Shown piece after piece: positions 3,524 through 53,375 of a DNA stretch of 64,000 bases. Below the pieces are notes generated by a model that saw only the letters and a program-made list of their open reading frames with translations, had not been told where the DNA came from and did no database searches. Position 1 is the first letter of the stretch. The number at the start of each line of letters is the position of its first letter. Source of the stretch: Escherichia phage JS10; sequence record EU863409. The stretch is one strand, 5' to 3'. Both the position numbers and the translations under genes were made by a program.

Positions 3524-5101
3524 ATGGCAAACTTTAATACAATATTAAGTTTTCTTAAGCCATGGGCTAATGAAGACGAAAAAGAATATAAACAACAATT
3601 AAATAACAATTTAGAGTCTGTCACTGCACCTAAGCTTGATGATGGCGCTCGCGAAATTGAAACCCAAGAGCAAAATATTCCTTATAACGCTCTTATGCAA
3701 CAAATGTTTGGTAGTAATGAGCCTGAAGTTAAAAACACCAGGGAACTCATTGATACCTACCGTAATTTGATGAACAACTATGAAGTCGATAACGCAGTTC
3801 AAGAAATTGTGTCTGACGCTATTGTCTACGAGGATGATAAAGAAGTAGTTGCATTAAATTTAGACGGGACAGATTTCAGTCAATCAATTAAAGATAAAAT
3901 TTTGGCTGAATTTAGTGAAGTTTTGAATCTTTTAAATTTCCAACGTAAAGGCACCGACCATTTCCAACGTTGGTATGTAGACTCGAGAATATTCTTTCAT
4001 AAAATTATAAACCCTAAAAAAATGAAAGATGGCGTACAAGAGCTTCGACGCTTAGACCCGCGCCAAGTCCAATATATTCGTGAAATTGTTACACGTATGG
4101 AAGATGGTGTTAAAATTGTAGATGGGTACCGCGAGTTTTTCGTTTACGATACTGGTCATGAAAGTTATTGTGCTGATGGACGCATTTATTCAGCTGGGAC
4201 TAAAGTTAAAATTCCTCGTGCTGCTGTAGTTTATGCACATTCTGGGTTATTGGATTGTTGTGGTAAAAACATCATTGGCTATTTGCAACGTGCTATTAAG
4301 CCTGCAAACCAGCTTAAATTGATGGAAGATGCAATGGTCATCTATCGTATTACCCGTGCTCCTGACCGTCGTGTATTTTATATCGATACAGGAAATATGC
4401 CTTCTCGTAAGGCTGCAGCACAAATGCAACATATCATGAACACGATGAAAAACCGTGTGGTATATGATGCTTCGACCGGTAAAATTAAAAACCAGCAACA
4501 TAATATGTCAATGACCGAAGACTATTGGTTGCAACGTCGAGACGGTAAAGCGGTAACAGAAGTTGATACCATGCCTGGTGCCACAGGTATGAGTGATATG
4601 GATGACGTTCTTTATTTCCGCACAGCACTTTATCGTGCGCTGCGTATCCCAGAGTCACGTATCCCTAGTGAATCCAATTCCGGTGTTATGTTTGATGCTG
4701 GTACGGCTATAACTCGTGATGAGTTGAAATTTGCTAAATGGATTCGACAGCTCCAAAATAAATTTGAAGAAATTTTCTTAGACCCATTAAAAACAAACCT
4801 CATTCTTAAAAAGATTATTACAGAAGATGAGTGGGAAAGAGAAATAAATAATATTAAAGTTACGTTCAACCGTGATAGCTATTTCAGTGAAATGAAAGAT
4901 GCGGAAATCATGGAACGCAGAATCAATATGCTAACGATGGCTGAACCATTTATTGGTAAGTATATTTCACATCAAACGGCTATGAAAGATTTCCTTCAGA
5001 TGACTGACGAAGAAATTAATCAAGAAGCTAAGCAAATTGAAGAAGAGTCTAAAGAGGCTCGTTTCCAAAACCCAGATGAAGAAGAAGAAGAGGATTTCTA
5101 A
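3524..5101 (+). CDS. 20: portal vertex protein gp20
   Basis: 525 aa, position between 19 and 67; acidic C-terminus ending EEEEEDF. Confidence 0.9.
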
Positions 5102-5804: not shown

Positions 5805-6439
5805 TGAAACCTGAATTGCTCATCGAACATTGGGGACAACCAGGTGAAATTATCGATGGGGTTCCGATGTTGGAATCTCATGATGGAAAAGATTCTGGAC
5901 TTGCCCCGGGCCTTTATATAGAAGGCATATTCATGCAAGCCGAAGTGGTTAACCGTAATAAACGCCTTTATCCAAAACCTATTTTGGAAAAAGCTGTTGC
6001 TGATTATATGGCAGAACAGGTTGCTACTAAACAAGCTTTAGGAGAATTAAATCATCCGCCTCGTGCTAACGTCGACCCTATGCAAGCCGCTATTATTATT
6101 GAAGATATGTGGTGGAAAGGTAATGACGTTTATGGACGTGCTCGTATTATTGAAGGCGACCATGGTCCTGGTGATAAACTAGCTGCTAATATTAGAGCCG
6201 GTTGGGTGCCTGGTGTTAGTTCTCGTGGTCTAGGTTCTTTAACCGAAACCAATAAAGGATATAAGCGTGTAAACGAAGGTTATAAATTAACCGTCGGTGT
6301 TGATGCAGTATGGGGTCCATCTGCTCCTGATGCTTATGTAACTCCTAAACAAATTACAGAATCACAAACGGTAGATACCGATACCAGTGCCGATGACGCC
6401 TTTATGGCTCTCGCAGAGGCCATGAAAAAAGCGTTATAA
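5804..6439 (+). CDS. 21: prohead core scaffold protease gp21
   Basis: 211 aa; N-terminus LLIEHWGQPGEIIDGVPMLESHDGKD matches T4 gp21. Confidence 0.9.
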   Translation: MKPELLIEHWGQPGEIIDGVPMLESHDGKDSGLAPGLYIEGIFMQAEVVNRNKRLYPKPILEKAVADYMAEQVATKQALGELNHPPRANVDPMQAAIIIEDMWWKGNDVYGRARIIEGDHGPGDKLAANIRAGWVPGVSSRGLGSLTETNKGYKRVNEGYKLTVGVDAVWGPSAPDAYVTPKQITESQTVDTDTSADDAFMALAEAMKKAL

Positions 6440-6442
6440 ATA
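6435..6442 (+). promoter_or_regulatory. late promoter box TATAAATA for gene 22
   Basis: exact TATAAATA about 28 bp upstream of the gene 22 ATG. Confidence 0.5.
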
Positions 6443-6469
6443 TTATTATCTAAACAACAGGACTACAAA

Positions 6470-7285
6470 ATGCTTAAAGAACAACTGATTGCCGAAGCAC
6501 AGAATATTGATGCTTCCGTTGCTCTTGACAGTATTTTCGAATCAGTTAATATTTCTCCGGAAGCAAAAGAAACTTTCGGCACTGTATTCGAAGCTACCGT
6601 CAAGCAACACGCCGTTAAACTGGCTGAGTCTCATATCGCTAAAATCGCTGAAAAAGCGGAAGAAGAAGTTGAGAAAAATAAAGAAGAAGCTGAAGAAAAA
6701 GCTGATAAGAAAATCCAAGAAGCTGCCGGTCGTTTCCTTGACCACGTCGCTAAAGAATGGATGGCTGAAAACCAGCTGGCTGTTGATAAAGGTATTAAAG
6801 CCGAACTGTTCGAATCCATGTTGATGGGTATGAAAGAACTGTTTGTTGAACACAATGTGGTTGTTCCAGAAGAAGCAGTGGATGTTGTTGCTGAAATGGA
6901 AGAAGAACTCCAAGAGCAGAAAGATGAAACCGCTCGTCTGTTCGAAGAAGTTGGTAAGCGTGACGCATATATTAATTACGTACAGCGTGAAGTTGCGTTG
7001 ACTGAAGCAACTAAAGACCTGACTGAATCTCAGAAAGAAAAAGTTAGTTCTCTGGTAGAAGGCATGGATTATTCCGATGCATTTGGTAAAAAAATTGGCG
7101 CTATCGTTGAAATGGTTAAAGGCCAGACTGACGTTGAAAAACCAATCACCGAAGCCGCTATAAATAAAACTGAAGACGATGCTGCAGCACTGAATTATAT
7201 TTCGGAAGCAGTTGAAGAAAAAGGCACTAAGCCTACCCTGTCCTTCGCGGACCTGTCTGCAATCGCAGCATCTCGAATTTCTTAA
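6470..7285 (+). CDS. 22: prohead core scaffold protein gp22
   Basis: 271 aa, E/K-rich coiled-coil-like composition, position between 21 and 23. Confidence 0.85.
   Translation: MLKEQLIAEAQNIDASVALDSIFESVNISPEAKETFGTVFEATVKQHAVKLAESHIAKIAEKAEEEVEKNKEEAEEKADKKIQEAAGRFLDHVAKEWMAENQLAVDKGIKAELFESMLMGMKELFVEHNVVVPEEAVDVVAEMEEELQEQKDETARLFEEVGKRDAYINYVQREVALTEATKDLTESQKEKVSSLVEGMDYSDAFGKKIGAIVEMVKGQTDVEKPITEAAINKTEDDAAALNYISEAVEEKGTKPTLSFADLSAIAASRIS
7159..7166 (+). promoter_or_regulatory. candidate late promoter box TATAAATA inside the 3' end of gene 22, upstream of gene 23
   Basis: exact TATAAATA about 140 bp upstream of the gene 23 ATG. Confidence 0.3.
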
Positions 7286-7306
7286 TTTAATAAGGTTATA
7301 CAACAC

Positions 7307-8866
7307 ATGAAAAAGAATGCATTAGTTCAAAAATGGTCCGCTCTGCTGGAAAACGAAGCTCTTCCTGAAATCGTTGGTGCTTCTAAACAAGCTATCATCG
7401 CTAAAATTTTCGAAAACCAGGAACAAGACATCCTGACTGCCCCGGAATACCGTGACGAAAAAATCTCTGAAGCATTTGGTTCTTTCCTGACCGAAGCTGA
7501 AATCGGTGGTGACCACGGTTATGATGCTACCAATATCGCAGCTGGCCAGACCTCTGGTGCTGTAACTCAGATTGGGCCGGCAGTAATGGGTATGGTTCGT
7601 CGTGCTATTCCTCATCTGATTGCTTTTGATATTTGTGGTGTTCAGCCTCTGAATAACCCTACCGGCCAGGTATTTGCACTGCGTGCAGTATACGGTAAAG
7701 ACCCTATCGCTGCTGGCGCTAAAGAAGCTTTCCACCCGATGTATGCTCCGAATGCTATGTTCTCTGGTCAGGGCGCTGCTCAGACTTTTGAAGCACTGGC
7801 TGCAGGTAAAGTTCTGGAAGTTGGTAAAATTTATTCTCACTTCTTCGAAGCTACCGGTGCTGCACACTTCCAGGCTGTTGAAGCCGTAACCGTTGATGCT
7901 GCTGCTACTGATGCCGCTAAACTGGATGTTGCCGTAACCGCTCTGTTGGAAGCTGGTCAGCTGGCTGAATTGGCTGAAGGTATGGCTACTTCTATCGCTG
8001 AACTTCAGGAAGGCTTTAACGGTTCTCAGGATAACCCGTGGAACGAAATGGGCTTCCGTATCGATAAACAAGTTATCGAAGCTAAATCCCGTCAGCTGAA
8101 AGCAAGCTACTCCATCGAACTGGCACAGGACCTTCGTGCAGTACACGGTATGGATGCAGATGCTGAACTGTCCGGTATCCTTGCTACCGAAATTATGCTC
8201 GAAATCAACCGTGAAGTTATCGATTGGATTAACTACTCTGCACAGGTTGGTAAATCTGGTATGACCAACACCGTTGGCGCTAAAGCTGGTGTGTTTGACT
8301 TCCAGGACCCGATTGATATCCGTGGTGCTCGTTGGGCCGGTGAGAGCTTTAAAGCCCTTCTGTTCCAGATTGATAAAGAAGCAGCCGAAATCGCTCGTCA
8401 GACCGGTCGTGGTGCTGGTAACTTCATCATCGCTTCCCGTAACGTAGTTAACGTACTGGCTGCAGTTGATACTTCTGTAAGTTATGCAGCTCAAGGTCTG
8501 GGTCAAGGTTTCAACGTTGACACCACTAAAGCAGTATTTGCCGGTGTTCTTGGTGGTAAATATCGCGTTTACATCGACCAGTATGCCCGTGCTGATTACT
8601 TCACCATCGGTTATAAAGGTTCCAACGAAATGGACGCAGGTATCTACTACGCTCCTTACGTTGCACTTACCCCACTGCGCGGTTCCGATCCGAAGAACTT
8701 CCAGCCGGTAATGGGCTTCAAAACTCGTTACGGTATCGGTATTAACCCGTTCGCTGACCCGTCTGCACAGGCTCCTACCAAACGTATTCAGAGCGGTATG
8801 CCTGACATCGTTAACAGCCTCGGTCTGAATGGTTACTTCCGTCGCGTTTATGTTAAAGGTATCTAA
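7307..8866 (+). CDS. 23: major capsid protein gp23
   Basis: 519 aa; long stretches match T4 gp23 as recalled (QAIIAKIFENQE, GSFLTEAEIGGDHGY, YAPYVALTPLRGSDPKNFQPVMGFKTRYGIGINPFA, YFRRVYVKGI). Confidence 0.97.
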   Translation: MKKNALVQKWSALLENEALPEIVGASKQAIIAKIFENQEQDILTAPEYRDEKISEAFGSFLTEAEIGGDHGYDATNIAAGQTSGAVTQIGPAVMGMVRRAIPHLIAFDICGVQPLNNPTGQVFALRAVYGKDPIAAGAKEAFHPMYAPNAMFSGQGAAQTFEALAAGKVLEVGKIYSHFFEATGAAHFQAVEAVTVDAAATDAAKLDVAVTALLEAGQLAELAEGMATSIAELQEGFNGSQDNPWNEMGFRIDKQVIEAKSRQLKASYSIELAQDLRAVHGMDADAELSGILATEIMLEINREVIDWINYSAQVGKSGMTNTVGAKAGVFDFQDPIDIRGARWAGESFKALLFQIDKEAAEIARQTGRGAGNFIIASRNVVNVLAAVDTSVSYAAQGLGQGFNVDTTKAVFAGVLGGKYRVYIDQYARADYFTIGYKGSNEMDAGIYYAPYVALTPLRGSDPKNFQPVMGFKTRYGIGINPFADPSAQAPTKRIQSGMPDIVNSLGLNGYFRRVYVKGI

Positions 8867-8915: not shown

Positions 8916-9182
8916 CTATGCAATCTTAACTCGACGGTTGATGATATCACGGAAGTCAATACGATTTTCTTGGATTTTCAGCCAGTTACCAGATTTGTCT
9001 TTGGTGTGGGTAGAGTATTCACCGTTCCACCAGAAGTCGGTTTCATAAGCCAGAGCTTCGTATTTCTTAACCAATGCATTAACTGCATTACCGTTAGGAT
9101 TGGTACCAAATTTTTCTACCAGAGCTTTGATGTCTTTGTCAAGGTTAGAAAGCGTGGTACGGATAAAGTTTAATTTGTTCAT
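8916..9182 (-). CDS. hypothetical 88-aa early protein in the 23/24 intergenic slot
   Basis: ORF 8916..9197; internal ATG at 9182 preceded by AGGAGA RBS and an early-promoter cassette. Confidence 0.5.
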   Translation of the reverse strand: MNKLNFIRTTLSNLDKDIKALVEKFGTNPNGNAVNALVKKYEALAYETDFWWNGEYSTHTKDKSGNWLKIQENRIDFRDIINRRVKIA

Positions 9183-9192
9183 TTTTAATCTC

Positions 9193-9241
9193 CTCATGTT
9201 TTGATAGGTCTATAGTAACACGTGGGAACCTTGCTGTAAAC
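9193..9241 (-). promoter_or_regulatory. early promoter cassette copy 1 (GTTTACA-N17-TACTATAGACCTATCAA...ATGAGGAG)
   Basis: read on the minus strand; drives the 88-aa ORF. Confidence 0.55.
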
Positions 9242-11877: not shown

Positions 11878-12906
11878 TTATTTGGATACTAGTTCAATCC
11901 ATACAGCTCGTAGCGTATCTTTAACGCACTCAACGAGCTGCTTTTTAACTTCAACAGGGTTTTCTGCATCGGTTAATTCTAATTCTTCACGGGCTGCCTC
12001 TTCCAAAATATCTTGGACCGTCAAGCCCATTACCTTTCCAAAATCTTTAGGTGTTACTTCACCAATCTTACTGATAACGTTATTGATACGGTTAACTGTC
12101 ACATAATCTGTGAATTGCCACATCAAGTCCATATCGTCTTGGGACAATACTACTGCAGCCTTAATAGGCTTATCAGATTTTTTCTTCTCGCTGAATTTAG
12201 AGTTCTTACATTTAATCGCTACACGATTTCCATTAGGAAGCCAGATTGGAACATCAGGTTTCAGTACAAAGCCTTCAGCCGTAAATACTTTACCTTCGAC
12301 CTTAGGAATAAAATCGGTTGAGTTAGCAATGGTTAAACCTGCATTATCCACTGCAAAATTGTAATCTGGGATAACAGAATCAAAATCATTCGGCAGTTTA
12401 ATAAGGTCTTCAAAGCTACCTGTGGCTAAGCACGGAGCAACCTTAAACTTATGGATAATACAGAAAGCTTCCATAAGGGTATCAGTTAAAACGGATTCGG
12501 TGCCATCTTCTTTAGTAACACGGATATCAAATACATAAAAGTCTTTATCGCCGTAATCCACATTCTTCTGGATACCCGTACCAGCGAACTCGCCATAAAT
12601 TTGGTACGACTGATAATTAATAGATTCGATTAGATGTTGAACAGATTTAATAGAATCAGCATAGTTCTTAAGTACAATTTCATAGCCATAGAAATCTTCG
12701 GCCGGGAGAATTGGGCCAGTGCGCTTGGCGCACGTGACTGCGTCACGTTCTATGATTAAACTAAAGTTGGTTCCATGAATCTTCTCACGTGCTACCCATT
12801 CACCACCAGTCAAACCATGGGTACGGAGTTTTTCGATAAACTTACTGTTGTAATGGTTTTCCAGACTGCTATATTTCTTGAACATATTATTTGCTTCCAT
12901 AATCAA
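11878..12906 (-). CDS. rnlB: RNA ligase 2 (RnlB)
   Basis: 342 aa; nucleotidyltransferase motif I EKIHGTN; position between 24 and hoc as in T4. Confidence 0.85.
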
Positions 12907-13255
12907 TTTTAACTAATTTACCTTTAAGGTAACCATAATTTGAAGGTTTACAATCAGACATATACATGCTTTCTACCAGAGTGTGGTGCCTAGCATGGTG
13001 TATTTCTGTTTTCCACAACCCTATATTAGTAACTTCTTTGGCCCTTGGCATAACTATAACAAGTCCTAACCAAGATTTCCATATAACAGGACACAAATAC
13101 GGGTCCTTCAATGATGAGAATTCATGTTCTGTTATATTGCAATAGAGTCCAGTTAAAAACAGTTTCCAACTATAGAAGCTTGGTATCTTAATGGCGTATC
13201 GTTTCGTCAGGAAGACCTGCCGGGTTGCACCATTTCTTTTTCTGATAAATGGCAT
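12887..13255 (-). CDS. hypothetical protein with protein-kinase-like motif spacing
   Basis: 122 aa; AIK ... HH ... DCKPSNYG ... KIDYG resemble kinase VAIK / catalytic-loop / DFG motifs; overlaps rnlB start by 20 bp. Confidence 0.4.
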
Positions 13256-13639: not shown

Positions 13640-13650
13640 AGGAGTATTAA

Positions 13651-14658
13651 ATGGCAGATTCTATTTTTGGTCATGACGGTCGAGGGACCTTTTCCGGTAT
13701 TGCTTTAAAGGAATCGGATACTGTTATCCCTTTTGAAAAAATTCTTACTAAAGAAAGTCTTATAAACCCGGCAAGATTGGTAGGGAGTAATTCGTATGGC
13801 TTAGGCTTGGTTAGTAAATCCGGAAGAGCTGAAGTTCTGGCCCATTTGGGGATAACCGAAGAAATGTTATCCCCTGGTATCCCTGGCCCTAAAGGTGAAA
13901 GCATTGTAGGACCGAGAGGCCCGGCTGGTCCTGTAGGCCCTGTGGGTCTAAATTGGAAAGGAACATGGAGTGCTGCAACAGCCTATGTTAAGGATGATGC
14001 AGTAGGGTACAATGGGGCTTCTTATTTTTGCGTTCAGGATTCTACCGGTAATAATCCTGCTGAAGAAAACAGCCTTTACTGGGCCTTATTGGCTTCTCAG
14101 GGTGCACAAGGCGAACAGGGTATCCCGGGTAAAGATGGTGAGCAGGGTCCGCAAGGTGTTCAAGGTCCTCCTGGGGTGGATGGGATTGATGGACTTGACG
14201 GAGCTACTGGCCCTCTAGGTCCTCAGGGTCCTCAAGGCGAACCTGGTAAAGATGGCACAGATTTGTTTTCATTCCATAAGTATACCAACGTTGCTGCTGG
14301 GTACGGTGAAATAAAAATACCTGGGGTCGCCAATACGGTTCTTAGAGTTAGATTGGTTAACAACCAAATAGAATACAGCATTTTAAGTAAAGGTGGGACT
14401 ACCCGATATTGTGATTATCACTTTGTTGCTCCTAGTGTTTCGGGTGGAACGGTTACTACCGGTGGCGGAACTAAGACTTTGTCTCCTACAGGCTCATTTG
14501 TTATAGTAAGTGCGGCATATAACGGGCTACGTCCTATTAATATAACCTTAAAGGAATGGGGTTCTAAAACAATTTCAGAAATAACAGTATTTCAACACGG
14601 GCGCAGTGTAGATTCTAATAAACCTATATTGGTTAAAATGGTTAGTTTCCCTTATTAA
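13651..14658 (+). CDS. collagen-like (Gly-X-Y repeat) protein with non-collagen N- and C-terminal domains
   Basis: 335 aa; GIPGPKGESIVGPRGPAGPVGPVG and an uninterrupted run of about 18 G-X-Y triplets (GAQGEQGIPGKDGEQGPQGVQGPPGVDGIDGLDGATGPLGPQGPQGEPGKDG); AGGAG RBS. Confidence 0.8.
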   Translation: MADSIFGHDGRGTFSGIALKESDTVIPFEKILTKESLINPARLVGSNSYGLGLVSKSGRAEVLAHLGITEEMLSPGIPGPKGESIVGPRGPAGPVGPVGLNWKGTWSAATAYVKDDAVGYNGASYFCVQDSTGNNPAEENSLYWALLASQGAQGEQGIPGKDGEQGPQGVQGPPGVDGIDGLDGATGPLGPQGPQGEPGKDGTDLFSFHKYTNVAAGYGEIKIPGVANTVLRVRLVNNQIEYSILSKGGTTRYCDYHFVAPSVSGGTVTTGGGTKTLSPTGSFVIVSAAYNGLRPINITLKEWGSKTISEITVFQHGRSVDSNKPILVKMVSFPY

Positions 14659-14669
14659 TTGGAGGTAGC

Positions 14670-15530
14670 ATGTCTATACAAGTAAATGGACCTCATTATG
14701 AATTGGTTGGGAGAACGGTAACTCTTAGGGCTGTTTTATCTGAATCTTTAACTGACGCTGATATAAAATGGTACAAAAACGGTGTAAACGTTCCATTATT
14801 AGATAAAGAAGACCCGATGTATCTAAATCTTTGGGATGTAGGGTTTCCGGCTTCTGGGACCTATTATGCAATAGCAACCGATAAACTTACACAAGAGGTT
14901 TTTCAAAGCGACGATTTTGTTTTAGAAATAGGAATGGAGCCTAGAGATATAGTTATTTCCGTAGAAAATTTAGATGCTATCGTAAAGGCGGCCATAGGTC
15001 AAAAAGTTTCTTTACAACCTTTAATTTCTATGGGTGCCACGCCCTGGGCTGAAGTCGAGTGTGAATGGTGGAAATACGATAAAATGGTTTCAAATGTAAA
15101 GGATTTGGACGTTGATATAAATCCTTCTATGTACGGGACATATTCACTTAATGTTTCTGCTACCGCTGAAGGAGCCTATAATCCGTATCATGATATAGTT
15201 ACGGTAGATATCATGCCTTTAGATGGTATTTTACCAGAACCTGAAGTGTGTCCTTTTATATACTCGAATGATTTAAATCAATATTTGTCTTATCCTGGTG
15301 GAAGAAATAGGGCTCATATGTGGATAGGTTGGTGGGTATTGGATGAGATAAAAGGAGCCCTTGCTAAAGACCAGGATTGGGCTATCAATATAGAAGATAG
15401 CAATTTTAGGTATAAGTGTGAGCTCATGAAAGTGGCAGAACTTTTGTCACGATATCCTGATGTAGAAATACAGGAATCAAGAAATGGATACATTTTGAAT
15501 AGGAAGCACCTGACATTAAATGTCATATAA
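14670..15530 (+). CDS. Hoc-like paralogue: two Ig-like domains plus Hoc-type C-terminal capsid-binding domain
   Basis: 286 aa; GGAGG RBS 12 bp after the collagen-like gene; C-terminus (WIGWWVLDEI...YPDVEIQESRNGYIL) parallels the C-terminus of the 469-aa Hoc. Confidence 0.7.
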   Translation: MSIQVNGPHYELVGRTVTLRAVLSESLTDADIKWYKNGVNVPLLDKEDPMYLNLWDVGFPASGTYYAIATDKLTQEVFQSDDFVLEIGMEPRDIVISVENLDAIVKAAIGQKVSLQPLISMGATPWAEVECEWWKYDKMVSNVKDLDVDINPSMYGTYSLNVSATAEGAYNPYHDIVTVDIMPLDGILPEPEVCPFIYSNDLNQYLSYPGGRNRAHMWIGWWVLDEIKGALAKDQDWAINIEDSNFRYKCELMKVAELLSRYPDVEIQESRNGYILNRKHLTLNVI

Positions 15531-15531
15531 C

Positions 15532-15561
15532 AAAACGGGAGAGCGAAAGCTCTCCCGTTTT
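15532..15561. terminator. bidirectional hairpin AAAACGGGAGAGC-GAAA-GCTCTCCCGTTTT between the convergent hoc-like and hoc genes
   Basis: perfect 13-bp stem with GAAA loop and U-tracts on both strands. Confidence 0.75.
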
Positions 15562-15574
15562 TATTTAGCCAAAA

Positions 15575-16984
15575 TTAGTAAAAATAAATTATACCTGTGT
15601 CAAGAGCCGAACGATGGATAATTCTTCCATTTCGTGATTCTTGTACATCAACCTCTGGATAATCCGCAACCATTTTTTGAAGAGTGTAGCGATGGAGATA
15701 ATAATTGCTATCTGGGTCATCAGTTTTCCAATCTTTACCTTCAAGTGTCATTTTCTGGATTTCATCCATAACCCACCAACCGGCCCAAATATACGCTGAA
15801 TTACGAACCGGCAGCGGATGGACGTAAGGTAGTTCGCCTTCCGGTTCAGGAGCAACTTTAGGCGTAATTGTTACATTACCAGATTTTTTGACAGTCACAG
15901 GATTATAGTCGGTAGCCGAAACCACAACAGAAACTTCAATAACCTGTGAACCTTCAGCACTTGTATCGACTACTAAAGTATCTGTGGTGCCGGCAACAGG
16001 TGAACCATCTTTCTTCCAAGAATATGCAAAAGTAGCACCAGCAGGCGCACCTGCTACGGTAGCTTTAAAAGAAGCTGGAGTTCCTTCCGGAGTATTAATA
16101 GAGGCCGGCGCTAAAGTAACAGAAACACCTGTCATGGTCTTTTTAGTAATTGTTACACTTCCGGTTTTGGTAACGGTTAAATCGTTATAATCCGTACCTT
16201 TTAGGACTACCGAAACTTCAATAGTGTAAGAACCTACTGTAGATGTATCAACAGCAAGGGTATTACTGCTTTCGCCCGGAATAATAGAACCATTTTTCTT
16301 CCAAGAATAAGTTGCATTTACGCCGGAAGGAGCGCCAACTACATCCGCTTTAAACTGTGCAGATGAGCCTTTCTCTGTACTAATTGAGGCTGGTGTTAAA
16401 GTAACGGAAGCACCTGATATAGTTTTCTTAACAAAAGTTACCGCAATACCTTTAGTAGCTGTAGCCGGGTCATATTCAGGGGCGGTAACAGTAACTTCAC
16501 AGTTCAACGTGTAATTTGCTTCTGCTGCTTCAGTTACAGTAATAGTTTTACCAGTTTGACCTGAAATTACAGTTGTATTACGTTTCCAAACATAAGCCAT
16601 TGTAGCGCCAGCAGGGACACCCGATACGTTAGCAGTAACAACTTGGGATTGACCGATTTCTTTAGAAACGGAAGTAGGGTCTAAGGTCAAAGAAAGAGCC
16701 CCAATGGTCTTATTAGCTACAGTAACTTCAAAAGTTTTTTCAGCTACCTCAGGTTCGCCTTCGGTCGGAGTAGAAGTTGCTACTACTTTTAAAACTTTCT
16801 TACCAGCTGGAGCCGCACCGGTATATCTCAAAACATTGGTGGCCTCTGGATTAGAAGCACCGTCAATGGTCCATACATATGTAACGGTTCCTTCTACAGC
16901 TGCACCTGTTGCGGTAGCAGTGTAGTTGGCGCTTTCGCCTATTTTAATAGACGCAGCGCCGGCTATACTTACAGTAAAAGCCAT
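15575..16984 (-). CDS. hoc: Hoc outer capsid decoration protein, four tandem Ig-like domains plus C-terminal capsid-binding domain
   Basis: 469 aa; four repeats of roughly 90 aa with the pattern TYxWKKNG...Y; C-terminal WAGWWVMDEI...YPEVDVQESRNGRII. Confidence 0.85.
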   Translation of the reverse strand: MAFTVSIAGAASIKIGESANYTATATGAAVEGTVTYVWTIDGASNPEATNVLRYTGAAPAGKKVLKVVATSTPTEGEPEVAEKTFEVTVANKTIGALSLTLDPTSVSKEIGQSQVVTANVSGVPAGATMAYVWKRNTTVISGQTGKTITVTEAAEANYTLNCEVTVTAPEYDPATATKGIAVTFVKKTISGASVTLTPASISTEKGSSAQFKADVVGAPSGVNATYSWKKNGSIIPGESSNTLAVDTSTVGSYTIEVSVVLKGTDYNDLTVTKTGSVTITKKTMTGVSVTLAPASINTPEGTPASFKATVAGAPAGATFAYSWKKDGSPVAGTTDTLVVDTSAEGSQVIEVSVVVSATDYNPVTVKKSGNVTITPKVAPEPEGELPYVHPLPVRNSAYIWAGWWVMDEIQKMTLEGKDWKTDDPDSNYYLHRYTLQKMVADYPEVDVQESRNGRIIHRSALDTGIIYFY

Positions 16985-17665: not shown

Positions 17666-17684
17666 AATTAGTCTCTTGTTGGTG

Positions 17685-17706
17685 TATAAATATAATTATA
17701 TTTATA
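17685..17706. promoter_or_regulatory. divergent late promoters: TATAAATA (plus, 17685..17692) for uvsW and TATAAATA (minus, 17699..17706) for inh-hoc
   Basis: two exact late boxes in opposite orientation within 22 bp. Confidence 0.55.
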
Positions 17707-17720
17707 ACTGAGAATTAGAC

Positions 17721-35620: not shown

Positions 35621-35907
35621 TAGAACCTCATCTGAAATCCATGTGATTTAACATTACCGCCGTAGATGTCAGAAGTATTGACTTCGCGGGCAGCGCTAGG
35701 GTCGATGTTAATATCATGGTTGAGCTTAGTGATTGCTAGGGTGTCACGACCATTGACTGTACGGAATTCTACTGGACAAACCACATCAGCATAGGCCTTA
35801 ATGGATTCACGAGTAGGCTGTTTGTCAGCAGGAACATCTTTACCTGCCTTAGAGAAAACAACTTCACAGAAATTTTTACGAGTATCGAAATAAGTGGTCA
35901 TAAACAT
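35620..35907 (-). CDS. hypothetical protein
   Basis: 95-aa ORF; GAGGAAA RBS and an early-promoter cassette upstream. Confidence 0.5.
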   Translation of the reverse strand: MFMTTYFDTRKNFCEVVFSKAGKDVPADKQPTRESIKAYADVVCPVEFRTVNGRDTLAITKLNHDINIDPSAAREVNTSDIYGGNVKSHGFQMRF

Positions 35908-35966
35908 AATATTTTTTCCTCATCAGTTGATAGGTCTATAGTATCATGCCTACTGGAGATGTATAC
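35905..35966 (-). promoter_or_regulatory. early promoter cassette copy 3
   Basis: GTATACA-N16-TACTATAGACCTATCAAC ... ATGAGGAAAAAATATT-ATG. Confidence 0.5.
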
Positions 35967-42968: not shown

Positions 42969-44116
42969 TACTCTATTACAATTTCTTTCAAATATTTTTC
43001 AGGGATTTGGGCCTTATGATTTTTCAAGAACACAGAGTTAATCTGGTCCATGACCGTATCATAATTAATACCGTCTACGTACGCCTGCATAAGAATAGAG
43101 AACAGCCCTGGGAAGTCTTTGAGGATTAACTGACCGGTGACAGCATAGTCTTTACGGTCACGGCCCTTGAGCTGAGAATACGCTGCTTCTAACAAAGCCA
43201 AGGACTGTTCTAAGTAGTCTAAATGGATACGTTCAAATGCATTGATTTTCTCGATAGCAAATGAATCAGTGCTGAACAAACCTCGGAGGTCATCGGTTCC
43301 ACCAGCCACTACAACTTCAAACAAACGTTCGTTGTTGTTAATGGAATCTTTGGTATGATGCAGTGCGCTATACCAAGCGGTTTTGAGTTTAAAGAACGTG
43401 CCATCTTTAAGTACAAAGATAAAGCCTTCAATACCCTCTTGTTTACGGATATTGTCAACAAAATCACCTTCGGTGAGTTCATAGCTTTTAACCAAATGCT
43501 TACGCAGAGCGCCATCTTTAAACAGTTCAGCGTAAGGGATATATTCACCCGTTTCGTTATTACGAACGTTCAGTAAGATAAGGTTTGTTTCTTGGTAAGC
43601 CAGCACAATACGGTTAGTAGGCGAAACATACTCGAGGTTACATGTATAGCCTGCTTTAGTAATTTCTTCTAAACGAGCAGCGAAGGCCTCGTTTTCAGGG
43701 AGTCGAAGGAAACGTAAAGAATCGTGTACCATCGACGAGTGGATAGAGCCTTTAGATTTAACAGAAAGATATTGTCTGTCCATGAAGGTAGAAATCAAGG
43801 AACCATCTTCCTTAGCCATTACGAGGTCGATATTTTCTTGTGATAAATCTAAACCAATAGTCAATGGGTTTTCATCGAGATTAAAGAACTTTTGCATAGG
43901 ACGAGCCGCGATACGTACAGGACCGTTCTCGTCCATTTCAAACATAATGCCTCGGCACTCTAGTGCGCCGTCTTCCAACCAATCACTGTACGATGCATAG
44001 TTATAACTAAAGATGCGATAGTTGACTCCTAGCGCACTCTGGAAGTCTTTAAAGAAGAACTTAGATTTAGTTGAGTTTTTAACCAAAGTCATCAAGTTAT
44101 CATATAATTCAATCAT
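42968..44116 (-). CDS. rnlA: RNA ligase 1 (RnlA)
   Basis: 382 aa; matches T4 Rnl1 as recalled (YRIFSYNYASYSDW, ALECRGIMFEMD, motif I KEDGSL). Confidence 0.9.
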   Translation of the reverse strand: MIELYDNLMTLVKNSTKSKFFFKDFQSALGVNYRIFSYNYASYSDWLEDGALECRGIMFEMDENGPVRIAARPMQKFFNLDENPLTIGLDLSQENIDLVMAKEDGSLISTFMDRQYLSVKSKGSIHSSMVHDSLRFLRLPENEAFAARLEEITKAGYTCNLEYVSPTNRIVLAYQETNLILLNVRNNETGEYIPYAELFKDGALRKHLVKSYELTEGDFVDNIRKQEGIEGFIFVLKDGTFFKLKTAWYSALHHTKDSINNNERLFEVVVAGGTDDLRGLFSTDSFAIEKINAFERIHLDYLEQSLALLEAAYSQLKGRDRKDYAVTGQLILKDFPGLFSILMQAYVDGINYDTVMDQINSVFLKNHKAQIPEKYLKEIVIE

Positions 44117-44526
44117 TGCTTTATCCTATGTTGGGTATTCCAAGGTGGATTAAATTTCTTTATGAACATTGGCTCTTCAAGAGACATGGTCTCAACTGAC
44201 ATAGTTCCAAGTTCGTTAGTCATCGACAGATTAAAGCACTGTCTAGCATAGAACTCTACCTTTTTACCTGCCATTAATGCTTCATGAATCAGAATGGACT
44301 TGGTCGAATCCGACGTTTGGTCCTTACGATTAATAGCGGTTCGGTAGTAGTTGATGCGCTTACGAAGATTTTTAGTCTTCCCGATGTAGACTAGTATATC
44401 ATCAACCGCTATAGCATATATGACATTTTGTTTATTTGGAACCGTGATAGGGGCTATAGTAGCATCTGTTTGGAGCTCCAGTGTAACGTACTTGATAAAG
44501 CTAAATTCATCTGCGATTTCTTTCAT
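44113..44526 (-). CDS. denA: endonuclease II (DenA), GIY-YIG nuclease
   Basis: ORF 44113..44550; start at MKEIADE gives 137 aa; GIY-YIG core VIYAIAVDDILVYIGKTKNLRKRINYY; position between rnlA and nrdB. Confidence 0.8.
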   Translation of the reverse strand: MKEIADEFSFIKYVTLELQTDATIAPITVPNKQNVIYAIAVDDILVYIGKTKNLRKRINYYRTAINRKDQTSDSTKSILIHEALMAGKKVEFYARQCFNLSMTNELGTMSVETMSLEEPMFIKKFNPPWNTQHRIKQ

Positions 44527-44553
44527 AGCAATAAGGGGCCGAAGCCCCATTCC

Positions 44554-45693
44554 TTAAAAATATTTCTTGTATGACGCCATTACTTTTTCATCGACATCAT
44601 TATCAATTTGTGCTACAAGGTAAGAACTGATTTCCACTTCCTGAGGAGCGGCCTGTACAGCATCAGAGTTCAGGTATTCGCGAATCCAAGGATATGGATG
44701 GCGAGTAGGAGCATCAGTAATAGGACACGGTAAGCCACATTGCTTCATACGAGAAACTGTCAGGTAATCGACAAAAGCACCCATGTTCTGAGTATTTAAT
44801 CCAGGGCAAGTACCATCTTTGAACAGGTGGCCAGCCCACTCTTTTTCTTGTCGGTTAACTTCCATGAAAATATCAACTGCTTCTTGTTCACACTCTTGAG
44901 CAATTTTAACCCATTCATCACCATCAGTACCAAGCTGGAGTTGACGAATAATATATTGGGTGCCTTTAAGGTGAAGCTGTTCATCACGTGCAATGAACTT
45001 CATAATCTTAGCATTACCTTCCATGATTTCCATATTCTTATGGAAGTTAAAGGTACATGCAAAAGATACATAAAAACGAATAGCTTCCAATGCGTTGATT
45101 ACATGGAGGCAGAGGTAAAGAGAACGCATTAGTTCGTATTTGGCCTGTTTTACGCCTTCGCTAAACTCATGATATTCTTCTAAAGCATTCTGGTAAAGTC
45201 GGGTTTTCTCAATAACATCATCATAATAACGACCAATAGATTCAGCACGTTTCATGATAGCTTCATCTAACAGAATTTCATCAAATACCTTAGATGGGTC
45301 TGTATAGAGGTTACGCATGATATGGGTATATGAACGAGAGTGAATAGTTTCACTAAAGGTCCATGTAGCAACCCACGTATCAAGGCTAGGGTCTGAAATC
45401 AATGCTTGGAGTGCAGCAGAAGGAGCACGTCCCTGGATACTATCCAGAAGTGATTGATACTTCAGGTTATTGGTAAAAATATTTTGCTGGAATTGTGGAA
45501 GCTTATTAAACTGGGCCGCATCCATCATCAAGTTAACTTCCTCTGGACGCCAGAAGAAACTCAACTGCTTTTCACAAAGCTCTTCGAATACTTTATGACG
45601 CTGGATATCGTAACGAGCAATACCCAATCCTGAACCAAAGAACATCGGTTCGACTAAAACATCAACTGGGGTAGTATTAAAAACTGTAGACAT
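44554..45693 (-). CDS. nrdB: ribonucleotide reductase small subunit NrdB (uninterrupted)
   Basis: 379-aa continuous ORF; position. Confidence 0.9.
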   Translation of the reverse strand: MSTVFNTTPVDVLVEPMFFGSGLGIARYDIQRHKVFEELCEKQLSFFWRPEEVNLMMDAAQFNKLPQFQQNIFTNNLKYQSLLDSIQGRAPSAALQALISDPSLDTWVATWTFSETIHSRSYTHIMRNLYTDPSKVFDEILLDEAIMKRAESIGRYYDDVIEKTRLYQNALEEYHEFSEGVKQAKYELMRSLYLCLHVINALEAIRFYVSFACTFNFHKNMEIMEGNAKIMKFIARDEQLHLKGTQYIIRQLQLGTDGDEWVKIAQECEQEAVDIFMEVNRQEKEWAGHLFKDGTCPGLNTQNMGAFVDYLTVSRMKQCGLPCPITDAPTRHPYPWIREYLNSDAVQAAPQEVEISSYLVAQIDNDVDEKVMASYKKYF

Positions 45694-45708
45694 GTTATTC
45701 TCATTTGT

Positions 45709-45726
45709 TAGTGACTCATCCGTGAG
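45709..45726 (-). promoter_or_regulatory. hairpin TGACTCA-NNNN-TGAGTCA between nrdA and nrdB
   Basis: perfect 7-bp inverted repeat about 15 nt upstream of the nrdB RBS. Confidence 0.3.
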
Positions 45727-45746
45727 TCAATTATAATCAGATTTTA

Positions 45747-48002
45747 TTAAAGCTTACAAGCTGCACAATCATCGGCTTTAGGAGTTTCGATTTCATAATC
45801 GTCAGTACCAGAGCCATCACGGGTGTTATGATAGTAAAGGTTCTTACCACCAAAGTACCAGAAATATAACAGGTCATCAAGCATTACTGACATAGGAACT
45901 TTTCCTTTCTCATAATTCTGAGGGTCGTAATACGTATTCGCTGATGCTGATTGGCAAACCCATTTCAACATAATTGCCACTTGGGTAAGATAAGGTTTAT
46001 TACCTTTCTTAGCGAGGCTCCAAGCGTAATCATAAAGGCCTTGGTTATGTTCTACATTAGGAACTACCTGACGGAAGTTACCTTCTTTAGATTCTTTAAT
46101 ACTTACCGGACCACGCGGAGGTTCGATACCGTTGGTAGAGTTGGAAACCTGGCTGCTTGACTCGCATGGCATAAGTGCTGATAATGTGCTATTACGGATG
46201 CCATGTTTAGCCAAGTCTTCCCGCAACGCCGACCAGTCACAAACATAGTTTGGGGCTGCGATTTGGTCAATCTTTTTATTGTACCAGTCGATAGGAAGCT
46301 CGCCTCGAGACCACTTAGTGTCTGAATAATACTCGCAAGGTCCTTTTTCTTCGGCCAACTTGATTGATGCTCGGATAAGTCCATACTGTAATCTCTCAAA
46401 CAGTTCATGAGTTAAATCGTTTGCGTCTTCATAAGAAGCAAAGTTGCTTGCCAGCCATGCTGCGTAGTTAGTAACACCCACACCAAGGTTACGACGTTTC
46501 TTAGCCTTAAGAGCTTCAGGAACAGGATAATCTTGGTAGTCTAACAAGTTATCAAGTGCACGTACCTGTACTTCAGCAAGTTCGTTGATTTTGTCTTGGT
46601 CTTGCCAATCGAAGTTATCCAATACGAATGCAGACAGAGTACATAAACCAATTTCAGCATCAGGACTATTCACATCGGTAGTCGGGATGGCAATTTCACA
46701 ACACAAGTTGCTCTGACGAATAGGAGCTTTCTCACGAATGAATGGCGTGAAGTTGTTAGTGTTATCAACGAATTGAGGATAAATTCGTGCAGTGCCTGAA
46801 CGTTCGGTCATGAACAATTCAAAGAGGTCGCGTGCTTTAATACGTTTCTTACGAATACTAGGGTCTTTTTCTGCGGCTTCATACAATTCACGGAAACGTT
46901 CTTGGTCTTCAAAATAAGAATAATAAAGCTCGCCACCCATTTCATGAGGACTAAACAGGGTAATATAATCATTCTTACCGAAACGTTCCATCATCAGGTC
47001 GTTTAACTGGATTCCGTAGTCCATATGACGAATACGGTTTTCATCGACACCTTTGTTGTTTTTCAGAACGAGCAGATTTTCAACTTCCAAATGCCAAATA
47101 GGATAATAAGCAGTAGCAGCGCCGCCACGGATTCCACCTTGTGAACATGATTTAACAGCAGTCTGGAAATGTTTCCAGAATGGAATAACACCAGTATGTT
47201 TGACTTCACCCATGCCAATACGAGAACCTTCAGCACGAATCATACCAACGTTAATACCAATACCTGCACGTTTAGAAATGTATTCAATTATTGAGTTTGC
47301 AGTTTTGTTAATAGATTTCAGTGAGTCACCTGCTTCAATAACAACACAAGAACTAAATTGACGGGTTGGAGTACGTGCACCAGCCATAATAGGAGTAGGC
47401 AACGAAACCTGACGAGTACTTACAGCGTCATAAAAACGAATAATATGTGCTAAACGGTTGCCCGGCTCGTCTTGGTGTAAGGCCATACCAATACACATTA
47501 TAGCGAACTGAGGAGTTTCGTAGATTTTACCTGTTGTTTTATCTTTAACCAGATATTTCTCTTTAAGCTGCATTGCACCAGCATAGGTTAATTCGAAATC
47601 GCGTTCATGCTTGATATGAGATTCCAGGAAAGTAATTTCTTCTGCAGAATATCGAGACAACAATTCAGGGTCATATTTACCTTCGTTAACACAATAGGAA
47701 ATATGGTCGATAAAACTGCGTGGTTCAAACTGGCCATAAACTTCTTTACGCAGTGCAAACATCAATTGCTTTGCAGCAACATACTGATAGTCAGGCTCTT
47801 CAACCGAGATAAGGTTGGCCGCTACCTTAACAGTCAGATTTTGGATATCTTTGGTAGTCATACCATCACGAAGGTGGGTTTTGATTTCTTCGTATAATTC
47901 ATAGGGGTCGATTTGGGTTCCTTCACAGCCCCAAGTCAGAACTTTAATAATTTTTTGTGCGTCAAAATCTTGGGATACACCACTACTTTTTTGTACTTGC
48001 AT
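45747..48002 (-). CDS. nrdA: ribonucleotide reductase large subunit NrdA
   Basis: 751 aa (T4 NrdA about 754 aa); position. Confidence 0.95.
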   Translation of the reverse strand: MQVQKSSGVSQDFDAQKIIKVLTWGCEGTQIDPYELYEEIKTHLRDGMTTKDIQNLTVKVAANLISVEEPDYQYVAAKQLMFALRKEVYGQFEPRSFIDHISYCVNEGKYDPELLSRYSAEEITFLESHIKHERDFELTYAGAMQLKEKYLVKDKTTGKIYETPQFAIMCIGMALHQDEPGNRLAHIIRFYDAVSTRQVSLPTPIMAGARTPTRQFSSCVVIEAGDSLKSINKTANSIIEYISKRAGIGINVGMIRAEGSRIGMGEVKHTGVIPFWKHFQTAVKSCSQGGIRGGAATAYYPIWHLEVENLLVLKNNKGVDENRIRHMDYGIQLNDLMMERFGKNDYITLFSPHEMGGELYYSYFEDQERFRELYEAAEKDPSIRKKRIKARDLFELFMTERSGTARIYPQFVDNTNNFTPFIREKAPIRQSNLCCEIAIPTTDVNSPDAEIGLCTLSAFVLDNFDWQDQDKINELAEVQVRALDNLLDYQDYPVPEALKAKKRRNLGVGVTNYAAWLASNFASYEDANDLTHELFERLQYGLIRASIKLAEEKGPCEYYSDTKWSRGELPIDWYNKKIDQIAAPNYVCDWSALREDLAKHGIRNSTLSALMPCESSSQVSNSTNGIEPPRGPVSIKESKEGNFRQVVPNVEHNQGLYDYAWSLAKKGNKPYLTQVAIMLKWVCQSASANTYYDPQNYEKGKVPMSVMLDDLLYFWYFGGKNLYYHNTRDGSGTDDYEIETPKADDCAACKL

Positions 48003-48068
48003 AATTTCCTCAATATGTTAGGTTCTACATCTATAATAACATAGAACCTGTTAAGCATGGACTGATAT

Positions 48069-48464
48069 TTATAGGTCTTCTAATGAGAACGTATCTTTGA
48101 AAAGTTTGTTAACAACCAGGGCTATCACATCCCCATGACAGTCCTTAGGTTTACAGGTACACGCTATTCGCATACCTCTAAGGGTTTCAAGGTGTTCTCT
48201 TTTAATTTCACCTGATTTTATTTTAGCAATAAAGTATTCTTTAAAGTTCTTGATGTTTTCCTCACGAGTCCCATCTTTAAATGGATTACCCCACATAGTT
48301 CCACGCTGGATATTGACATCAAAATCTTCTTTATACTTGTTAACAACTCTACAGACTCTCATTATAGCACCAAATTCAGCCCAATCATAATAACCAAAAA
48401 TAAGGTACCAGCGATTTGAATTTTCATACAGCCATCTTAGCCTTAATAGTAGGGTGTGATTCAT
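48069..48464 (-). CDS. hypothetical protein with WGNPF ... C-x-C ... CHGD motifs (DUF4326-like); start uncertain
   Basis: ORF 48069..48479; candidate starts at 48464 or 48362; overlaps the td 3' end. Confidence 0.4.
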   Translation of the reverse strand: MNHTLLLRLRWLYENSNRWYLIFGYYDWAEFGAIMRVCRVVNKYKEDFDVNIQRGTMWGNPFKDGTREENIKNFKEYFIAKIKSGEIKREHLETLRGMRIACTCKPKDCHGDVIALVVNKLFKDTFSLEDL

Positions 48465-49280
48465 AACCTTTAAGAACAAAATCAGACGGCTTCATTGAAT
48501 CAATCCAAGACAGTTGTGTCTTAGTGTCCCAAAGAATAAACTCTTCCGGTAAATCAATCTCGAGTTCACAAAGATCTTTAGGTTCGCGACGAAGAACTTC
48601 TTGGCATTGTTCAACGTGATTAGAATAGATGTGCGTATTGCCGCCTGAGAACACTAAATCGCCAGGAATAAGATTACACATCTTAGCTACAATATGCACA
48701 AGAGCGGCGTAAGAGGCGATATTAAATGGCAATCCTAAGAACACGTCAACAGAACGTTGGTACCACTGGAGGTCAAGATGGCCGTTACGAACGTTGAACT
48801 GATAAAAACAATGACATGGCGGAAGAGCCATCTGGTTGATTTCAGCCGGGTTCCATGCGGATACGATTTGACGTCGGTCATTAGGCATCTTTTTAATACG
48901 GTTGATAATTTCTACAACCTGGTCGACACCACCAAAATCTCGCCATTGTTTCCCATATACAGGACCGAGTTCGCCGCTATGATAACCTAGGTCTTTGGCC
49001 TGATTTTCATAGTTCTCGTCCCAAATAGTTTTACCGTCAATTAATGAACCGTGAGTACGGAAACGAAGGTCGTTAACGTTTGTTGAACCCGAAAGGAACC
49101 AAAGGAGCTCAGCAATACAGGCTTTCCATGCTAATTTTTTAGTTGTTACTGCAGGAAAGCCTTTAGTTAAATCAAAACGTAATTTAGTACCGAACAGTGC
49201 AATTGTACCGGTGCCGGTACGGTCGTCGGTTTCGTAGCCATTTTCCAGGATATCTTTAATTAAAAATTGATATTGTTTCA

Positions 49281-49293
<13 letters not shown>
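48424..49293 (-). CDS. td: thymidylate synthase (uninterrupted)
   Basis: 289-aa continuous ORF; ThyA-like sequence throughout. Confidence 0.95.
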
Positions 49294-50402
<1,109 letters not shown>

Positions 50403-53285: not shown

Positions 53286-53375
53286 ATTATTTACCTTAGC
53301 AGATTTTAGCAGTTGTATTTTATTAACAGTTTTTAACAGATTGAGTTAGTATATTAACACATTTAATATGAAGCA
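53286..53375 (-). promoter_or_regulatory. gene 32 5' leader, candidate translational operator
   Basis: 90-nt A/U-rich leader with repeated UUAAA/UAAAA elements, read on the minus strand. Confidence 0.4.

Follow-up and report, generated by a model that had tools for sequence, protein, structure and literature searches.

A 64-kb segment of Escherichia phage JS10 with uninterrupted td and nrdB genes, no recognised homing endonuclease gene and an empty nrdB intron site within a T-even-like patch

The 64,000-nt stretch of Escherichia phage JS10 DNA that was analysed (EU863409; referred to below as the window) opens with the end of gene 17 and closes with the start of gene 37. It is very probably a segment of a JS98-type Dhakavirus genome in which the denA-nrdB-nrdA-nrdA.1-td-frd region and the rest of the 64 kb contain neither a group I intron nor a homing endonuclease gene, and in which td and nrdB are intact with empty insertion sites. 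Though no selfish element is resident, the locus, in our reading of its sequence, appears to have exchanged DNA with intron-carrying T-even (Tequatrovirus) lineages, given that a T-even-like patch was found in nrdB and a near-identical gene of 68 codons was found beside td. When positions 44000–50000 of the window were compared by megablast with 50,697 phage records, the top match was JS98 (96.6% identity, 100% coverage), and the next matches were ~35 other Dhakavirus phages at 92–96%. The entire 64 kb was collinear with JS98, mostly at 91–98% identity, which places the window in the JS98 type (genus Dhakavirus). A promoter and terminator scan of positions 44000–50200 yielded signals no richer than those of shuffled sequence.

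Both td and nrdB had been described in the first-pass annotation as uninterrupted, and this was confirmed: the open reading frames run across the exact T4 insertion sites in the alignment, and the Rfam scan was negative. The nrdB gene is located at 44554..45693 (minus strand) as a continuous ORF of 379 aa, the length originally given, and its product shows 87.6% amino acid identity to the spliced NrdB of T4. For td, the continuity was upheld and the annotated length of 289 aa was corrected, given that this ORF (48424..49293, minus strand) begins at an upstream TTG, while the ATG at 49281, which is the start matching T4 and JS98, gives a continuous gene of 285 aa (48424..49281, minus strand). 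When the genomic td of T4 (NC_000866) was aligned to the window, two blocks were obtained that are contiguous in the window and 1017 nt apart in T4; the blocks of the genomic nrdB of T4 (NC_000866) were also contiguous in the window and are split in T4 by an intron of 598 nt. The T4 exon junctions were set by demanding an open spliced frame, which placed the td intron between ...TTCTTGGGT and CTACCG... and the nrdB intron between ...TTTTGCGT and GTACC.... In the window, the empty td site (TTAGGA followed by TTGCC) is at 48732..48733 (minus strand), and that of nrdB (TTTTGCAT followed by GTACC) is at 45056..45057 (minus strand), exactly the point at which the introns of T4 and Bp7 are inserted. 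Neither coding sequence is split, as it would be by a T-even-type group I intron. Since no Rfam family was returned on either strand at gathering thresholds, no group I intron is present in the 64 kb. The nrdA gene (45747..48002, minus strand; 751 aa) is collinear with T4 NrdA (754 aa), and therefore carries no intein; no insertion was seen in it. The nrdA.1 homologue (DUF4326) is located at 48069..48479 (minus strand).

The window had further been said to encode no homing endonuclease and to have DenA as its only GIY-YIG protein. This statement stood, as the Pfam, PHROGs, tblastn and seg/mob HMM searches were all negative, including the profile scan of the small ORFs that had been put forward as the result that could overturn it. 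A total of 83 genes were called in the window and the longest uncalled stretch was 354 bp, so that no space is left for a hidden endonuclease gene. The denA gene (endonuclease II; 44113..44550, minus strand) overlaps rnlA by 4 nt and encodes the sole GIY-YIG protein of the window (Pfam PF01541, E=9.8e-5). Its assignment to endonuclease II was based on this domain, on orthology to T4 DenA (71.5% identity over 144 aa, E=5e-70, which served as the tblastn control) and on its position between rnlA and nrdB. DenA is a GIY-YIG nuclease that degrades host DNA, and is not a homing endonuclease. A Pfam scan of 47 ORFs that are small or hypothetical revealed no HNH, LAGLIDADG or AP2 family, nor any GIY-YIG domain beyond that of DenA, and the 20 ORFs searched against PHROGs were assigned to families of tail fibre or Hoc-like proteins or to families of unknown function, with zero homing endonucleases. 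The same 47 Pfam-scanned and 20 PHROG-scanned small ORFs were negative for the other classes (LAGLIDADG, HNH-AP2, His-Cys box and PD-(D/E)XK); the large genes, which were outside the profile scans, were judged by their collinearity with JS98 and T4 orthologues.

Pfam alone was not accepted as a sufficient negative, given that the seg-like gene of IME281 was missed at E<=0.01, yet matched T4 SegA at 1e-18 in phmmer. Therefore, tblastn and purpose-built HMMs, checked on positive controls, were added. When 15 T4 homing endonucleases were compared with the window by tblastn, no match below E=0.09 was observed. Against 1191 six-frame fragments, the best match of the seg HMM was DenA, at E=0.3, and that of the mob HMM had an E-value of 1.1, while the positive controls in Dhakavirus relatives were detected at 6.9e-33 (seg, IME540) and 9.4e-84 (mob, LHE83). 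No I-TevI or I-TevIII ORF was found below E=0.7, either by tblastn with I-TevI and the defective T4 I-TevIII or by phmmer with the full-length I-TevIII of Bp7. Thus, neither a free-standing seg-type GIY-YIG gene nor a mob-type HNH gene was found in the window. This absence covers 64 kb of a genome of ~170 kb, the remainder of which could carry homing endonuclease genes, and very divergent or new endonuclease families could evade all the scans used.

All of the sites (6/6) that are occupied by such genes in the matching region of T4 were found to be empty in the window. The segE site of T4 corresponds to the inh-uvsW spacer of 55 nt (17666..17720), and the segG site to the spacer of 90 nt between gene 32 and gene 59 (53286..53375). 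The nrdA-nrdB spacer (45694..45746, minus strand; 53 nt) contains no insertion, whereas mobE and nrdB.1 are inserted at this place in T4, and a mobE-like gene in LHE83. The gap between genes 23 and 24, which holds segD in T4, is occupied by an ORF of 93 aa (8916..9197, minus strand), which matches PHROG 6003 over its full length and has no similarity to SegD. The remaining two T4 sites are those of I-TevIII within nrdB and I-TevI within td. With these sites empty and the scans negative, the description of the phage as a relative lacking the td and nrdB introns and all seg and mob genes of the region was borne out.

A degenerate or unrecognised homing endonuclease might be sought among three small ORFs: one of 68 codons located between frd and td, the 93-aa ORF that stands in place of segD and one of 122 aa beside rnlB. 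They lie at junctions where mobile genes are found in other phages, and Pfam can overlook seg-like genes. The 68-codon ORF (49281..49487, minus strand; PHROG 9550) overlaps both of its neighbours (ATGA and TAATG) and is variably present, being found in 236 phage records and missing from T4, Bp7, fDHCT2 and LHE83, in which frd and td directly abut. It is also near-identical across genera: over ~240 nt, its DNA is 97.5% identical to that of the Tequatroviruses C2-3 and PYPS2T, both of which carry td introns, and the frd and td genes beside it are 75–85% identical to those of the same two phages. The 122-aa ORF covers only positions 39–168 of a 225-position PHROG profile. However, most of the small ORFs, including those of 68 and 93 aa, match PHROG families of their own length from end to end, so that these two cannot be regarded as leftovers of larger genes. 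Pfam recognised no nuclease domain in any of the three ORFs (the 68-codon ORF had no Pfam match of any kind), no significant PDB match was obtained for the 68-codon or the 122-aa ORF, and a protein of 68 aa cannot accommodate both a nuclease and a DNA-binding domain. Moreover, tblastn and the seg/mob HMMs were negative while the controls scored 1e-33 to 1e-84. An endonuclease concealed among these ORFs is thus most improbable, and the 68-codon ORF is not an endonuclease. Motifs picked by eye in the 122-aa ORF (YAIKIP, DCKPSN and IDYG) had suggested a kinase, a guess that was set aside since there was no Pfam kinase match. The frd-td junction, which lies ~550 nt from the td insertion site, is shown by the 68-codon ORF to participate in cross-genus exchange.

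Selfish elements are present in other members of the genus. In Bp7, nrdB is split at the exact T4 site by an intron of ~1.09 kb encoding an HNH I-TevIII of 268 aa; the intron is 99% identical to the copy in RB3, and the Bp7 exons are only ~78% identical to T4. A mobE-like gene of 213 aa lies between nrdA and nrdB of LHE83 (E=4.8e-44 against T4 MobE), and a seg-like gene of 215–216 aa lies between rnlA and denA of IME281 and IME540 (E=1e-18 against T4 SegA). At the corresponding insertion junctions, the window has the 53-nt nrdA-nrdB spacer and the 4-nt rnlA-denA overlap. In fDHCT2, a D12 adenine methyltransferase is encoded between nrdB and nrdA; this 'dam' ORF was considered as a misnamed endonuclease and rejected, as it is a genuine D12 methyltransferase.

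Alignment with the T4 exons had been proposed as the way to confirm that the insertion sites are intact, and the outcome was not the same for the two genes. From -31 to +22, the nrdB site shows one difference from T4, a synonymous G to A change at -2. I-TevIII cleaves at -14/-16 (PMC1865063), and as the sole difference within -31..+22 is at -2, the cleavage positions are identical to those of T4. The I-TevIII target at the empty nrdB site is therefore almost intact and looks cleavable. The I-TevI target spans 38 bp, with cleavage 23 and 25 nt upstream of the insertion site (PMC2988022). At the td site of the window, the amino acid sequence is conserved (FLGLPFNIASYA), so that the site is intact at the protein level and not at the DNA level: between -27 and +13, 10/40 bases are unlike the intron-less I-TevI target of T4 (at -22, -19, -16, -13, -10, -4, -1, +1, +3 and +6), and CAACG is kept at -27..-23. 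I-TevI tolerates substitutions; the td site, having drifted at synonymous positions, may be a poorer substrate for it. No high-identity tract was found around the td site, where synonymous codon identity to T4 was 32/72 (44%) compared with 71/140 (51%) elsewhere in the gene (p=0.47).

Around the nrdB site, by contrast, a T-even-like patch of 236 nt was observed (44852..45087, minus strand; about -31 to +205 relative to the site, which includes -14/-16). It differs from T4 at 9/236 positions (96% identity), whereas its flanks are 67–71% identical; just upstream of it 19/58 positions differ from T4, and downstream ~29% do. When the whole window was scanned against T4, the mean identity was 73% across the 56% that aligns, and only two stretches in the 64 kb reached at least 93% identity over at least 200 nt, namely 44831–45101 (the nrdB patch) and 6341–6721 (the gene 21/22 border). 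Among codons for the same amino acid, 71/78 (91%) were identical to T4 inside the patch and 147/250 (59%) outside it in nrdB (Fisher p=2e-8). The patch used as a query matched 380 phage records at 95–99%, including the intron-less T6 and T2 as well as intron-bearing Tequatroviruses, and a 6-kb query reached 95–99% identity in only 14 records. The distance between the window and T4 was 0.038 in the patch, compared with 0.021–0.047 within Dhakavirus and 0.043 between T4 and T6; in the flanks of the patch the window-T4 distance was 0.17–0.26.

RB69 was rejected as an outgroup for the patch, in which it is 40% divergent, and the nrdB genes of Jiaodavirus and Kanagawavirus were used instead. In these genera, the patch distances (0.13–0.15) were again smaller than those of the flanks (0.25–0.36), the segment being ~two-fold closer. 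Given that the patch is slower-evolving in distant genera also, we take the segment to be constrained and part of its conservation to reflect selective constraint. Carried further, this would make the patch a product of strong purifying selection, acting on synonymous sites as well, with no exchange; the encoded part of NrdB is invariant (100% amino acid identity to T4), and conserved sequence is a known target of homing endonucleases (PMC2790892). However, a constraint like that in the distant genera predicts a window-T4 distance of ~0.10, and not the 0.038 observed. In the patch, the distance between genera equals that within the genus, and synonymous codons are far more often identical to T4 than elsewhere (91% against 59%). 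Moreover, the divergence of RB69 in this segment indicates that the nucleotide sequence is not universally fixed. Selection as the whole explanation is possible and rather unlikely; since constraint alone under-predicts the similarity, an exchange of alleles between Dhakavirus and Tequatrovirus around the intron site appears to be the better explanation of the patch.

Such an exchange could also have been the homing of an intron that once resided in nrdB and was then precisely lost, the patch being its co-conversion scar. The patch does straddle the insertion site with sharp edges, and Bp7, in which the exon sequence matches T4 at every base from -40 to +45, demonstrates the uptake of a T-even intron by a Dhakavirus nrdB. 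We nevertheless regard a lost intron as quite improbable, given that the intron-less T6 (96.6%) and T2 (95.3%) have the same patch: an intron-less donor is enough, and the patch is therefore no evidence of a former intron. In addition, the patch is common to all Dhakavirus members examined, no intron remnant is present in the window, and precise removal needs recombination with an intron-less allele anyway. As to how the favoured allele exchange came about, we suggest only tentatively, as an unlikely origin, that the nrdB patch and the 68-codon gene might be scars left where I-TevIII, MobE or I-TevI of co-infecting T-evens had cut the DNA and repair had drawn on foreign templates, with no intron retained. 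If this were true, the action of homing endonucleases would make their target regions more uniform among phage genera, including in genomes that lack the enzymes.

In homing, the endonuclease of a co-infecting donor would cut the empty allele, which would then be repaired from the donor copy. As the nrdB site is nearly identical to the I-TevIII target, it should, judging from its bases, be open to invasion by I-TevIII, and Bp7, of the same genus, indicates that invasion of nrdB does occur in nature. The first-pass annotation had called the window a clean baseline for studying the gain of introns and homing endonucleases. This was right with respect to the sites, which are empty; it was not right if the region was meant to be untouched, in view of the T-even-like patch, the 68-codon gene with its 97.5% identity, the diverged td target and the elements found within the genus. 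The patch at nrdB thus warns against assuming that a site has been left untouched because it is empty. The window, with a cleavable-looking nrdB site and a diverged td site, forms together with Bp7, LHE83, IME281 and IME540 a natural set of donors and recipients within one genus, which is useful for homing crosses.

The endonuclease-free and intron-free state itself is already known for JS98 and JS10, and JS98-type genomes without introns or endonucleases have been in the literature since 2007–2010. Petrov et al. 2010 listed both phages as 'None' for every class of homing endonuclease in their Table 5, as they did RB69, CC31 and others, and found the three intron-borne endonucleases to be confined to the T-even cluster (PMC2993671). 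Wilson and Edgell 2009 used JS98 and JS10 as nrdB sequences lacking mobE, and reported that codon 42 of nrdB is AAG in all phages without mobE (PMC2790892). In the window, this codon is AAG. The td and nrdB introns are missing from most relatives of T4, and what is mildly new is limited to the nrdB patch and the 68-codon ORF.

Compared with known systems, the window resembles JS98 in its gene order, its continuous td (285 aa) and nrdB (379 aa) and its lack of any homing endonuclease gene, and the frd-td interval with the 68-codon ORF is the same in JS98, in which this ORF is unannotated. It differs from JS98 by insertions of 370 bp and 1.94 kb, both between rnlB and hoc, by a longer hoc, by the absence of genes 30.7 and 30.8, and by divergence in parts of alt and of the tail-fibre genes 34 and 37. 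With T4, the window shares an identical gene order in the td-nrdA-nrdB region, and NrdB, NrdA and thymidylate synthase (the td product) are 82–89% identical; unlike the window, T4 carries two introns (with I-TevI and the defective I-TevIII), mobE and segD/E/G, and all six of these endonuclease genes are absent from the window. RB69 (Mosigvirus) is similar in that td and nrdB are continuous and no endonuclease genes have been reported, but its nrdB is 40% divergent in the patch in which the window is 96% identical to T4. Bp7 belongs to the same genus as JS10, with nrdB 88% identical and the insertion site at the identical point; between -40 and +45 its exon sequence is that of T4, whereas the site in the window is empty and has A instead of G at -2.

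A seg-like GIY-YIG gene annotated only as "hypothetical protein" was found in the rnlA-denA interval of two Dhakavirus genomes, IME281 (positions 1614-2264 of that sequence) and IME540 (positions 417-1064). Its product matched T4 SegA by phmmer at 1e-18, while no Pfam family was returned for it at E<=0.01; seg genes are therefore under-called by scans that use Pfam alone. The td gene of Tequatrovirus C2-3 is interrupted at positions 3758-4073 of that sequence by a gap of only about 314 nt with no annotated ORF, which may represent a td intron without an endonuclease.

Relative to JS98, the window carries a 1.94-kb insertion (13644..15584) with two plus-strand ORFs (13651..14658 and 14670..15530), on the strand opposite hoc. 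The 335-aa protein of this insertion contains collagen repeats and a CBM_5_12 motif and falls in the tail-fibre family PHROG 5073, and the 286-aa protein has a Hoc-like C-terminus (PHROG 1149). Among 50,697 phage records, Esco_phi_B-01 alone shares the insertion at the DNA level, and it may constitute an additional capsid-decoration or fibre module. The hoc gene itself (15575..16984, minus strand) encodes 469 aa, compared with 282 aa in JS98. Because its central part could not be aligned to JS98, the presence of additional Ig-like repeats is suggested.

Another insertion relative to JS98, in the rnlB-24.3 interval, holds a minus-strand ORF of 122 aa (12887..13255), which covers only positions 39-168 of the 225 positions of PHROG 4301. 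No kinase match in Pfam and no match in the PDB was obtained for this ORF. Inspection by eye picked out the kinase-like motifs YAIKIP, DCKPSN and IDYG. Genes 30.7 and 30.8 of JS98 are missing from the window at ~35903..35934, where about 30 bp stand in place of about 830 bp of JS98.

At the junction of frd and td, a 68-codon ORF (49281..49487, minus strand; PHROG 9550) overlaps both genes. It is present in some Dhakavirus and Tequatrovirus phages and absent from others, and its DNA identity between the two genera is 97.5%, compared with 75-85% for its flanks. Homologues with about 43% amino acid identity occur in coliphages of ~150 kb.

Besides the nrdB patch, the only stretch of the 64 kb at least 93% identical to T4 is 6341..6721, which takes in the last part of gene 21 and the beginning of gene 22 and where identity to T4 reaches 98%, against a mean of 73% for the window; this stretch looks like a second mosaic patch. 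Within the nrdB segment that is 96% identical between T4 and the window, the nrdB of RB69 (6701..7873 in that phage's sequence) diverges from both by ~40%, compared with about 20% in the flanks of that segment, and RB69 may have undergone a replacement of this part of the gene.
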